IMG/VR virus record: IMGVR_UViG_3300042261_000868
Span: 16,665 to 80,664 of that record
Reading direction: 5' to 3' (one strand)
DNA: 64,000 nucleotides
Origin: a virus
A model generated the notes under the pieces. The model searched no databases. It saw only the letters and a list, made by a program, of their open reading frames with translations, and had not been told where the DNA came from. The first letter of the stretch is position 1. The number at the start of each line of letters is the position of its first letter. This document shows positions 56,923 through 63,595 of this stretch, piece after piece. Position numbers and translations under genes: made by a program.

Positions 56923-56950
56923 ATTATACTGATAAATTTATCAGTGTCAA
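56923..56950 (-). promoter_or_regulatory. consensus sigma70-like promoter whose spacer is an 18-bp palindrome
   Basis: TTGACA-16 nt-TATAAT; ACTGATAAATTTATCAGT at 56928-56945. Confidence 0.7.
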
Positions 56951-57297
56951 GTTGGTTTATTAAAGTCTTTTTCGGTTGGGCAATATGATAATGTTGGATC
57001 ACGACCTAGTTTGCGTAAACTTTGCCCGTTTGGACAAATGCAAAACACCTTTGCATCAATTGGAAGACCCATTGGAGTAAAACATTTTGAATGAATAACT
57101 CCATTGCCCCCACAAAGAGCACATGCTGGGAAAGTGAAACCTCTTTCTGGATCGGAGACAGGTACATTATAATATGCCATCCAATAATTGTCAATAACCT
57201 CGTTGCAGAAAGCCTCTGCCCAAGCAAGTTTCTCGTCTGAGTCTTCTATGTTATTAAGATTCTCAATTAACTTTTCGGCTAGTTCTTTTCTTTTCAT
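56947..57297 (-). CDS. hypothetical zinc-binding protein
   Basis: CALCGGNG...FCICPNG. Confidence 0.65.
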   Translation of the reverse strand: MKRKELAEKLIENLNNIEDSDEKLAWAEAFCNEVIDNYWMAYYNVPVSDPERGFTFPACALCGGNGVIHSKCFTPMGLPIDAKVFCICPNGQSLRKLGRDPTLSYCPTEKDFNKPT

Positions 57298-60218: not shown

Positions 60219-60779
60219 TTAGGGTTGCTTATGGGGAATCAAAACATATTGCCCACCCGCATATTCCATTCTGGAACAATTTACTAACAATGTAGCAAGT
60301 CGTTTGGCAGTATCTTCAACTATATTGGGGATATATCTTTCTCGCCCCTCTAATTTAACTTGAATCTTAACTTTACAATTCTCGTCTAAAAACTCTTTAA
60401 CTTTTTTTGCTTTAATTTGAAGGTCGTGGTCTTGAATTGTGGGGGACATTCTAATTTCGTGGTCCTCTGACCTATTTAATGCCTCGTTATGCTTTTTCTT
60501 TTTCTTAAGATGATAAAGATGCTTTTTATAATCCATCAATTTACATACGGGTGGGTGTGCATTGGGGGCAACCTCAACTAAATCAAGACTCTTTAGATTC
60601 GCTCTAGAAAGTGCTTCGGTAATAGTTAGGATGCCTTGTTTTTGATCATTCTCATCAATAAGGAGTACCTTTGGTACTCGTATTTCAAAATTAATTCTAT
60701 GCTCCTTTTCACTAACAGAGTTATTAATTTGATATTTTTTATTAAATTCTTTCATAGGCATCATTTGAGCGGTAGACAC
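60219..60779 (-). CDS. infC: translation initiation factor IF-3
   Basis: RIN.EIR...V.LID...Q.GI....EAL..A....LDLVEVAPNA.PPVCKLMDY.K; EIR.SP.I..HDL..K; KVK....GRE; GTG start after AAGGAG. Confidence 0.93.
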   Translation of the reverse strand: MSTAQMMPMKEFNKKYQINNSVSEKEHRINFEIRVPKVLLIDENDQKQGILTITEALSRANLKSLDLVEVAPNAHPPVCKLMDYKKHLYHLKKKKKHNEALNRSEDHEIRMSPTIQDHDLQIKAKKVKEFLDENCKVKIQVKLEGRERYIPNIVEDTAKRLATLLVNCSRMEYAGGQYVLIPHKQP

Positions 60780-60859: not shown

Positions 60860-62554
60860 TTATAGATCGTATATTTCTTTTACTTTCTTGCCGTAACTCT
60901 TGATTATTTGGCCGCCAACAGCATTGGCTTCATCTTCTAAATCTCCACCGACATCTTGATATTGAGTATTAAGTTCAATTTTACCAACTTTGCGCTGATG
61001 GAAATGCACCAATTCATGAGCTAAGGTTCTCAAAAAGTCCGCTAATGACCTTCCCTTAACATATACCATGATTTCTTCATTGGTTGGGTTGAATGCTCCA
61101 TGTGTCATTCCACCCTTACGAGTAACTAAAAAACTAATCTTAGGCAATTCAGTTAATCTAAGGTAACTTAATGCGTGTTGGATGAAGTTCTCAATGATGG
61201 TTGAGATAGTTTCATCAAATTCTTGCTCAGTTACGAAGGAATAACTATCCTTAGTTATAGGATTTGGTTTAAAATACTCCTCTTGTATCATTGAACTCTT
61301 TATAAACTCAGCGATTTCGCCTGGATTGTTGTTAATTTGACCATCCCATAAGGCAGAAAGCACTTTTTTCTGTGCAACTCCAATCTTTGGGAAGTCTTTT
61401 TTGTCCTTAATACCCATAAATTGGGCCAAAGTAGGTCCATCAACCGCTAACTCCTTGCCACGTAAAGGTACTTGACGCATCTTTTCGATTTTTTGTTGAA
61501 TTTCTTCATCAATTTCTTTAAAAACTTCTGATAAGACTGCTAAATCTTGGTCAGTTAAATTTCCAACATAACTATGTGGGTACTCTTTTGTGTTTTTTAT
61601 TAACTTTGCGGTTTCAATAAGTTTGATGTATTTAGCATCTGGCTTCATAATGTTGTAATTACCACCATTAATAAAGAAAGCAACCATTTGCCCAGAGATT
61701 TTATCCTCTGGTTTGGTTAAATGAGGTAATTTTACAATGAAAGGATTAAATTCAGCACCGAAAAGCTTTTCACCCACCTCTAACTTCCAGAGAAGGGTAA
61801 TAAATGTCTCGCTATCGGCCTTTCCTTTCGTCCACGCCTTCTTAAATTCCTCAAAGATTCTCTCGCCAGATACACTAGAAAGTTCGCTAGAAAGGTTTCT
61901 AATGGCATTGGCAGTCTCACCACTGATATCAAACCCCATTCTCGTAGCAAATTGAATGGCACGAAGCATCCTTAAGTGATCCTCACCAAAACGAGCAAGA
62001 GGATCACCTACAGCCTTTAATACGCCACCTTCTAAATCCTTTAATCCACCGTTGGGGTCAATGACAGCATCTTTTAAAAGTGCAATTGCTTTCTCTTTAG
62101 GGTATGCTTGGACATTTATAAAGACACTTAAAGGAACTGCCATGGCATTCCAAGTAAAGTCGCGCCTCTTTAAATCATCCTCAACAGATGCATTGGGGTC
62201 AACTTGAACAGTGAAATCCGTATGCTTATCGCCAGTACGGTCTTCCTTGGTTCTAGGAATTGCAAAATCAAATTCTTCTTTATCTATATTCGCCTTAACA
62301 ATACCAAACTGTTGACCAACTTCTTTTGGTTTGCCTATTTGGACTAAAGCGTGTTGAATTTCCTCAAGACTTAATTTCCTTACAAGGAAATCAATATCCT
62401 TGGGGTCATGACCTAACACAAAGTCTCTTATGGGTCCACCAACAACAAATATCTCACCACCAGCTTGAGTGATAGCATTATTAATCTTTTGTAAGGTACT
62501 TATATCAACCTTACTCTCATCGAGAACCTTGAAGAAACTTTGAAAATTATCCAT
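60860..62554 (-). CDS. CCA tRNA nucleotidyltransferase fused to a C-terminal HExxH metallopeptidase-like domain
   Basis: VGGPIRD...KDID, RRDFTWNAM, DPNGGLKDL, EDHLRMLRA, VSGERI.EEF.K; C-terminal RTLAHELVH..Q...EDEANA. Confidence 0.88.
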   Translation of the reverse strand: MDNFQSFFKVLDESKVDISTLQKINNAITQAGGEIFVVGGPIRDFVLGHDPKDIDFLVRKLSLEEIQHALVQIGKPKEVGQQFGIVKANIDKEEFDFAIPRTKEDRTGDKHTDFTVQVDPNASVEDDLKRRDFTWNAMAVPLSVFINVQAYPKEKAIALLKDAVIDPNGGLKDLEGGVLKAVGDPLARFGEDHLRMLRAIQFATRMGFDISGETANAIRNLSSELSSVSGERIFEEFKKAWTKGKADSETFITLLWKLEVGEKLFGAEFNPFIVKLPHLTKPEDKISGQMVAFFINGGNYNIMKPDAKYIKLIETAKLIKNTKEYPHSYVGNLTDQDLAVLSEVFKEIDEEIQQKIEKMRQVPLRGKELAVDGPTLAQFMGIKDKKDFPKIGVAQKKVLSALWDGQINNNPGEIAEFIKSSMIQEEYFKPNPITKDSYSFVTEQEFDETISTIIENFIQHALSYLRLTELPKISFLVTRKGGMTHGAFNPTNEEIMVYVKGRSLADFLRTLAHELVHFHQRKVGKIELNTQYQDVGGDLEDEANAVGGQIIKSYGKKVKEIYDL

Positions 62555-63312: not shown

Positions 63313-63339
63313 ATTATATCTTCTTTTTTTTAAAGTCAA
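63313..63339 (-). promoter_or_regulatory. sigma70-like promoter
   Basis: TTGACT-15 nt-TATAAT. Confidence 0.5.
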
Positions 63340-63559
63340 CATCAAGTTTTTTACACCTTTTTCTTATTGCATTATCAGAAACTCCAAACATTTTTCCTAT
63401 GGTTGTCATTGGATATTGAGAAACCAATTTTTCTAGTTCCTCTTTAGATACTTCAAATTTTTTGGGTTCGTTTTGGAAATGCGTGGGGGAGTCGAACCCC
63501 GAAACCTTAACAGTTTTGCAGACTGCTCCCAGAAACCCCCTGAGATTAAGGACACGCAT
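63314..63559 (-). CDS. HTH-domain ORF overlapping the tRNA-Cys (leaderless gene or homing-endonuclease remnant)
   Basis: SKEELEKLV...TTIGKMFGVSDNAIRKRCKKL HTH; the only ATG upstream of the HTH lies inside the tRNA. Confidence 0.45.
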   Translation of the reverse strand: MRVLNLRGFLGAVCKTVKVSGFDSPTHFQNEPKKFEVSKEELEKLVSQYPMTTIGKMFGVSDNAIRKRCKKLDVDFKKKKI

Positions 63560-63560
63560 C
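63474..63560 (-). tRNA. tRNA-Cys(GCA) with non-canonical structure
   Basis: Acceptor GATGCGT(G)/(C)ACGCATT, discriminator U, encoded CCA, anticodon loop CT-GCA-AA, T loop TTCGACT; 87 nt. Confidence 0.8.
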
Positions 63561-63567
63561 TATGCTA

Positions 63568-63595
63568 ATTATATCAGTATCCGTGGACTTGTCAA
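63568..63595 (-). promoter_or_regulatory. consensus sigma70-like promoter with extended -10 for the tRNA-Cys
   Basis: TTGACA-16 nt-TATAAT with TGn extension, 7 nt before tRNA G1. Confidence 0.75.

Follow-up and report, generated by a model that had tools for sequence, protein, structure and literature searches.

The window, a stretch of 64,000 nucleotides that forms the end of an 80.7-kb viral contig from freshwater (IMG/VR; approximately 34% complete), carries on its minus strand a whole gene of 87 nt for a non-canonical tRNA-Cys with the anticodon GCA, which was characterized from its sequence, predicted folds, an alignment of relatives, and a covariance model (R1; Table 1). The letters at positions 63474–63560 of this strand were exactly those quoted in a preliminary description of the DNA. 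The RNA begins with the 5′ strand of an 8-bp acceptor stem (GAUGCGUG/CACGCAUU), which is followed by U9, an insertion of six nucleotides, a D-like hairpin with a stem of 6 bp (7 if the pair G/A22:U28 is counted) and a loop containing GGGUU, an anticodon stem that in the window type consists of four Watson-Crick pairs with a G:U pair on top, an extended variable region, and the T arm.

All copies of this RNA that were found share the anticodon loop CUGCAAA with GCA, U33, and A36-A37-A38, the discriminator U73, the encoded CCA, the T loop UUCGA(CU), and the GG in the D-like loop. The identity of tRNA-Cys is conferred by U73 and the GCA anticodon (Pallanck, 1992; Komatsoulis and Abelson, 1993; cited in PMC5389517), both of which are present and invariant here, and the earlier statement that the Cys identity elements and the T loop are intact thus extends to all types; the CCA end is invariant as well. 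Other canonical features seen in the window RNA are the 7-nt anticodon loop, U33, a purine at position 37, a T loop of the form TTCRA, and a 3′ CCA directly after the discriminator.

Table 1. Location of the tRNA-Cys gene, its parts and neighbors in the window, and other unusual phage tRNA genes (locations preceded by a locus name refer to that locus, all others to the window).
Feature	Location	Strand	Description
Non-canonical tRNA-Cys(GCA) gene	63474–63560	−	Whole, 87 nt, CCA encoded
Acceptor stem, 5′ strand (positions 1–8)	63553–63560	−	Pairs with 63478–63485 (8 bp); three pairs changed on both sides, two on a single side, G8:C76 invariant
Extra helix, 5′ strand (positions 10–15)	63546–63551	−	CCUUAA; “E-loop”-like insertion between acceptor and D-like stem
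D-like hairpin (positions 16–34)	63527–63545	−	UCUCAG-GGGGUUU-CUGGGA; 16:34 and 17:33 compensated; GGGUUU loop invariant
Anticodon arm (positions 35–51)	63510–63526	−	G, then CAGU-CUGCAAA-ACUG; 36:50 and 37:49 compensated; loop invariant
Anticodon GCA	63517–63519	−	In 7-nt loop CUGCAAA, with U33 and A36-A37-A38
Extended variable region (positions 51–60)	63501–63510	−	UUAAGG, 3′ strand of the extra helix; UUUC, linker
T arm (positions 61–75)	63486–63500	−	4-bp stem GGGG/CCCC, loop UUCGACU; invariant across types
Acceptor stem, 3′ strand (positions 76–83), discriminator, and CCA	63474–63485	−	U73 equivalent at 63477; CCA at 63474–63476
Sigma-70 type promoter	63568–63595	−	TTGACA-16 nt-TATAAT, TG before the −10 element; 12/12 match; ends 7 nt before position 1
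HNH homing endonuclease remnant	63314–63463	−	C-terminal helix-turn-helix; PHROG HNH endonuclease match (profile positions 124–180 of 183); not part of the RNA
Phage tRNA nucleotidyltransferase, CCA-adding type	60860–62554	−	564 aa; about 0.9 kb from the tRNA gene
IF3 homolog	60219–60779	−	Full two-domain protein; adjoins the nucleotidyltransferase gene
tRNA-Tyr(GUA)-like gene	L002 8668–8761; L130 4471–4564	− (L002); + (L130)	Upstream neighbor in third-type clusters; missed by ARAGORN
D-armless tRNA-like genes (Arg UCU and others)	L163 4071–4146, 3985–4061; L162 13987–14062, 16254–16330	−	Matched by RF00005, missed by ARAGORN
tRNA-Lys and tRNA-Asn	L002 8996–9086, 9124–9214, 7658–7746	−	Long variable-arm hairpins (class II shape)
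Non-canonical phage tRNA-Cys	L023 9166–9243	+	7/4; missed by ARAGORN; 322-kb phage
Sec-like tRNA-Cys	L097 8064–8145	−	9-bp acceptor, 6-bp D stem with tetraloop

Detection and distribution of the RNA

ARAGORN reported 0 tRNA genes in the 64-kb window, and no Rfam family matched it at the gathering thresholds, in line with the low scores that had been expected of tRNA finders. The best match in a sensitive Rfam scan was bacterial tRNA-Sec (RF01852), which at 30 bits fell below its cut-off of 47, and matches to the Tymovirus TLS (13.5 bits) and mascRNA (12.7 bits) in the same scan were dismissed as noise. The homologs that lie inside both tRNA clusters described below were not matched by RF00005 at E ≤ 1e-3 either. 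An in silico deletion scan showed that ARAGORN called a tRNA-Cys(GCA) once almost any 3–16 nt within positions 7–30 were removed. Since many alternative deletions restored the call, the oversized D region alone hides the gene, and there is no single excisable intron.

In pattern scans of viral contigs and metagenomes, the RNA came up as three to four sequence types, spread over five or more further phage contexts whose flanks differ. One copy (L133) belongs to a relative of the window phage with the same upstream ORF, and its tRNA differs from that of the window only at position 1, which is A instead of G. The acceptor stem is largely rewritten in a second type (L126, L129, and L131), and the D-like, anticodon, and extra-helix sequences are rewritten in a third (L002, L128, L130, L134, and L135). 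Logan contigs from three other freshwater studies contained the tRNA with two to three differences per 109-nt stretch including flanks, these flanks being of the L133 type. A covariance model built from four distinct family sequences (R1) assigned more than 100 bits to family members and at most 44 bits to every ordinary tRNA in approximately 1.5 Mb of phage loci, and the family thus is sharply delimited from ordinary tRNAs.

A motif scan of one genome per species for 185,579 prokaryote species returned 25 pattern matches; as model R1 gave no score to any of them, they were regarded as chance matches. The GenBank phages (INPHARED) contained no copy of the tRNA, and their match was to the HNH endonuclease remnant only. 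A collection scan with the D-arm pattern and any anticodon retrieved unrelated RNAs only, and a locus search via the CCA-adding enzyme led only to relatives of 36% identity whose loci were devoid of tRNAs. Among the matches listed for a first, broad Cys pattern, most were ordinary or long-variable-arm phage tRNA-Cys. Within the reach of these searches, the RNA is confined to uncultured phages.

Fold and covariation

The minimum free energy and centroid structures calculated for the window RNA by itself both contained the 8-bp acceptor stem, an extra helix of 5 bp, a 7-bp D-like hairpin, the anticodon hairpin, and the 4-bp T stem; with a folding energy z-score of −1.3, this single-sequence fold is not significant alone. 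The same five helices were independently recovered by RNAalifold. In an alignment of four sequences, 96% of the cells were paired under the proposed structure. Nine pairs, spread across the acceptor, D-like, anticodon, and extra helices, were changed on both sides compared with 2.2 in shuffles and 0–2 in slid-partner controls, and the shuffle statistics overstate the significance of this number because there are only three independent types and each compensation amounts to a single evolutionary event.

Every type has an acceptor stem of 8 bp, in which three pairs are compensated and the eighth (G:C) is constant, and the T stem GGGG/CCCC does not vary. The would-be fifth T pair (49:65) is C:C or U:C in every type, and the canonical arrangement of a 7-bp acceptor and a 5-bp T stem was found in none of them; instead, the 8-bp acceptor and the 4-bp T stem form the 12-bp branch that characterizes (8/4) tRNAs. 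As far as the aligned sequences indicate, 8/4 is the only consistent reading of the acceptor and T stems, and the basis of this assignment is the constant mismatch at the fifth T pair, not covariation. The 8/4 geometry had been suggested as a possibility in the preliminary description and is borne out by the invariant G8:C pair, the compensated acceptor pairs, and this mismatch; the 6-bp D-like stem noted there also proved to be conserved, with two compensated pairs and a seventh pair that is G:U or A:U. Two pairs of the anticodon stem are compensated as well, and its top pair is G:U or G:A.

In all types, 7 nt (U9 and positions 10–15) separate the acceptor from the D-like stem. The extra helix that these nucleotides can form with the variable region was less uniform. 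Every type retains the pairs 10:56, 11:55, and 12:54, and compensatory changes occur at 11:55 (C:G to U:A) and 12:54 (U:A to C:G). The pairs 13:53, 14:52, and 15:51, in contrast, are disrupted in the third type, and the second type likewise lacks 14:52. Thermodynamically, the helix is likely in the window type alone, where its pair probability was approximately 0.66; the values for the two remaining types were 0.2 and 0.16. Since the proximal pairs are kept and the distal ones broken, the conserved element is a helix of 3–4 bp, and the perfect 6-bp version is lineage-specific. The perfect CCTTAA/TTAAGG helix emphasized in the preliminary description, for which covariation among homologs had been named as a check, thus stands for its three proximal pairs, but not for the three distal ones. 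Judged from this pattern, an extra helix is plausible and its proximal half alone is supported.

Neighboring genes and phage tRNA clusters

Transcription of the window gene is predicted to start at A(−1) or G(+1) of the tRNA, given the position of the consensus promoter in front of it. Three such perfect promoters exist in the window, all on the gene strand, versus 0.12 expected by chance, and one of the other two precedes an ordinary gene with a ribosome-binding site; the window phage appears to use consensus host-type promoters. These other two perfect TTGACA-N-TATAAT promoters are located at window positions 56923–56950 and 57166–57194 (minus strand). The −10 element is absent in L133 and in the Logan relatives, and the promoter upstream of the tRNA is thus not conserved, being either a lineage-specific addition or lost in the others. 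Its presence 7 nt upstream had been taken as an argument against a decayed pseudogene; the promoter itself was confirmed, with all 12 consensus positions matched, but the argument is weakened by the relatives that lack the −10 element. In three flanks that otherwise differ (window, L133, and L126), the tRNA is immediately preceded by the hexamer AGCATA, and CAT precedes many of the tRNAs in the clusters L162 and L163. All copies have an A at position −1, and in a precursor this A could form a pair with U73.

In L133, a 15-bp intrinsic terminator is located 4 nt past the CCA. The HNH endonuclease remnant of the window lies directly 3′ of the tRNA at the spot of this terminator in the relatives, and one Logan contig has 666 extra nt at the same spot, presumably a fuller HNH endonuclease gene. 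Given this position of the remnant, an 81-aa ORF that overlaps the tRNA is probably no gene. The CCA-adding enzyme encoded farther downstream has a C-terminal extension with an HExxH-like motif and a weak match to Peptidase_M78. Its presence together with the adjoining IF3 gene fits a translation-related neighborhood.

Two of the three types are situated inside large phage tRNA clusters. In the cluster of a 112.8-kb contig, ARAGORN with introns allowed identified tRNAs for 19 of the 20 amino acids, Cys alone being missing, and the additional RF00005 matches in this cluster did not include a GCA tRNA. The RNA described here thus would fill exactly the one gap in this set. Its upstream neighbor in the third-type clusters, the tRNA-Tyr(GUA)-like gene, combines an 8-bp acceptor with an extra loop of 7–9 nt, a D stem of 6 bp capped by a tetraloop, a variable arm, and a T stem that is 4-bp or bulged, and its two copies differ in sequence, but have the same shape. 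With this second E-loop-like 8/4 gene beside the third type, E-loop 8/4 tRNAs appear to be recurrent in these phages.

The apparently D-armless tRNA-like genes in L162 and L163 have only approximately 7 nt before and 20 nt after the anticodon arm. Further peculiarities of these two clusters (L162, G001:76500–96400; L163, G002) are Gln and Tyr tRNAs with anticodon-loop inserts of approximately 45 nt that hold a T-arm-like hairpin, and, in one of the two, a tRNA with a CUA (amber suppressor) anticodon. The class II shape of the Lys and Asn tRNAs in L002 is unusual for tRNAs of these specificities.

Relation to known tRNAs and probable function

Transfer RNAs with 8/4 and 9/3 acceptor branches have been described (Mukai et al., 2017; PMC5389517), including (8/4) tRNA-Ser and tRNA-His from phage clusters, selC* tRNA-Cys, and a group with an “E-loop” located between the acceptor stem and the D stem (PMC7609411). 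The statement in the preliminary description that 8/4 tRNAs such as selC* tRNA-Cys and allo-tRNAs exist is thus documented, and for the same reason the architecture cannot count as wholly new: 8/4 species are on record both from phage clusters and with an extra loop between acceptor and D stem (PMC5389517; PMC7609411). With the E-loop (8/4) tRNAs, known from irregular tRNA polycistrons (PMC5389517; PMC7609411), the window RNA shares the 8-bp acceptor, the 4-bp T stem, the insertion after the acceptor, and U73, and standard finders miss both alike. The insertion lies where an E-loop is expected, a likeness in described shape. The published E-loop tRNAs originate from soil metatranscriptomes (probably acidobacterial), have other anticodons (GCU), and were assigned no function, whereas the window RNA is a Cys GCA species of phage clusters. 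The complementarity between its extra nucleotides and a lengthened variable region also sets it apart from them; no description of pairing between extra nucleotides after the acceptor and an extended variable region was found in the literature searched.

The selC* tRNA-Cys and allo-tRNAs (PMC5389517) have the 12-bp 8/4 branch, the long D stem, and the occurrence in phage clusters in common with the window RNA, and selC* also U73 and GCA. They differ in their long variable-arm hairpin, their D tetraloop, and their anticodon stem of 6 bp, in contrast to a variable region of 8–10 nt without such a hairpin, a D loop of 5–7 nt, and an anticodon stem of 4–5 bp in the window RNA; the selC* system moreover comprises linked selB* and cysS* genes. 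Canonical tRNA-Cys (RF00005) has the same CUGCAAA loop, U73, CCA, T loop, and overall tRNA logic, but is 7/5 where the window RNA is 8/4 and lacks U8, and its distance from the acceptor to the anticodon stem is approximately 19 nt versus 27 nt. The variable region of 9–10 nt and the extra helix enclosing the D and anticodon arms further separate the window RNA from it. Bacterial tRNA-Sec is similar in its long acceptor and 6-bp D stem, but apart from the low score mentioned above the anticodon is GCA instead of UCA, a variable arm is lacking, and the branch has 12 instead of 13 bp.

Copies that are identical or compensated occur in phages with differing flanks, and on this evidence the RNA is a real gene under selection, in agreement with the earlier view that it is not a decayed pseudogene. 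Its gap-filling position in a phage tRNA set points to ordinary decoding. Considering all of these data, the locus probably (with a probability of roughly 0.7) encodes a functional phage tRNA-Cys(GCA) that reads UGU and UGC and belongs to the known 8/4 class, with a non-canonical body of the E-loop type. A role in translation would agree with the finding that 8/4 tRNAs, Cys species included, function in E. coli translation (PMC5389517).

It is unlikely that the RNA is tRNA-shaped without a role in decoding, acting as a decoy or sponge for a host defense nuclease that targets tRNAs or as a regulator that binds a tRNA-binding protein. Such a role would suit a non-canonical body missed by both RF00005 and ARAGORN, and in the window phage the gene is the sole tRNA-like gene seen in 80 kb and has a strong promoter of its own. 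The strict retention of the anticodon loop, U73, CCA, T loop, and 12-bp acceptor branch fits decoding better than mimicry, however, and the RNA corresponds to the single missing amino acid in a phage tRNA set that covers 19 of 20. We know of no defense nuclease specific for tRNA-Cys, and the suggestion in the preliminary description of a decoy or a nuclease-resistant tRNA gained no support, since the place of the RNA in the tRNA sets suggests ordinary decoding. Precedents for the non-decoding reading are that some irregular 8/4 tRNAs have been proposed to be non-translational and that E. coli enzymes failed to charge the E-loop (8/4) tRNA that Mukai et al. assayed in vitro (PMC5389517).

Use in recoding, in the manner of selC* tRNA-Cys, with SelB-like delivery or as a near-cognate reader of UGA instead of a general elongator, is improbable. 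The tRNA-Sec model is the best Rfam match, the 8/4 branch, long D stem, U73, and GCA are as in selC* tRNA-Cys (PMC5389517), and one type has A1:U72 like the cysS*-dependent selC* species, but the long variable-arm hairpin and the 6-bp anticodon stem are absent, the anticodon is GCA and never UCA in every copy, a search for CysRS (PF01406) gave no match in three phage fragments (14–37% complete), and the clusters otherwise resemble general decoding sets. A decaying pseudogene, or a tRNA gene broken by an insertion or intron, is hardly credible: the conservation of the sequence, identical or compensated across phages with different flanks, largely refutes it, no single defined deletion restores a canonical gene while many different ones trigger an ARAGORN call, and ARAGORN still finds no Cys tRNA with introns allowed, and these points weigh against the oversized D region, the failure of the finders, and the homing-endonuclease remnant directly downstream, which could be cited in its favor. 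An intron or insertion was also rejected as such because no unique excision yields a canonical gene. A fragment of a phage attachment site was discarded, as the RNA is full length, matches no cellular genome in the one motif scan, and sits within tRNA clusters. The idea of a “superwobble” linked to 4-bp anticodon stems (PMC13092985) concerns C34 tRNAs, not G34 tRNAs, and was set aside.

For a functional tRNA-Cys, the body observed here consists of an acceptor branch of 8 + 4 instead of 7 + 5, followed by one nucleotide, six extra nucleotides, and a D-like hairpin of 6–7 bp. Three or more nucleotides at the start of the insertion pair with the variable region, which is lengthened to 9–10 nt, and the short helix so formed encloses both the D-like hairpin and the anticodon arm. 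As the 3′ strand of the anticodon stem continues without a gap into that of the extra helix, both can stack into a helix of 10–11 layers. In the proposed model, the extra helix would stack on the anticodon stem in place of the normal D stem, and the 10–11 layers would equal the length of a normal anticodon stem, the 26:44 layer, and the D stem taken together. The D-like hairpin would leave from the junction of the extra helix and the anticodon stem and lie alongside the extra helix. As both are of approximately the same length, its GG loop could reach the T loop and keep the elbow, and with it the L shape. The acceptor and T stems would supply the standard 12 bp for EF-Tu, and the host CysRS would charge the RNA via U73 and GCA. 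In the window phage, transcription from the gene's own promoter would begin at the mature 5′ end or 1 nt before it. The most far-reaching part of this model, namely that the helix between insertion and variable region functionally replaces the D stem, giving two three-way junctions instead of one four-way junction in an RNA that is still charged and used on ribosomes, is put forward tentatively and may well be incorrect.

If this rewiring were real, the RNA would form, together with the D-armless Arg tRNAs of the same clusters, a class of topologically rewired phage tRNAs that is invisible to annotation and possibly insensitive to host tRNA-directed nucleases, and that in the window phage would be independent of 5′ leader processing. 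The RNA also offers a concrete and testable example of an extra core helix in a tRNA. Should it be charged and decode, CysRS, EF-Tu, and the ribosome would tolerate a wider range of tRNA structures than is known, and a compact natural scaffold would be added to the 8/4 tRNAs used in genetic-code engineering. For annotation, the consequence is that among large phages with near-complete tRNA sets, some of which standard tools list as lacking Cys, a “missing” tRNA-Cys can be an artefact caused by a non-cloverleaf tRNA.

Other phage tRNA-Cys genes also deviate from the canonical form. In the 7/4 tRNA-Cys of L023, a complementarity between GUCAA and UUGAC could likewise close around the anticodon arm, and many of the phage tRNA-Cys(GCA) among the matches listed for loci L005–L123 have variable loops of 6–7 nt or long variable-arm hairpins. 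Among phages, tRNA-Cys seems to be unusually variable in shape.
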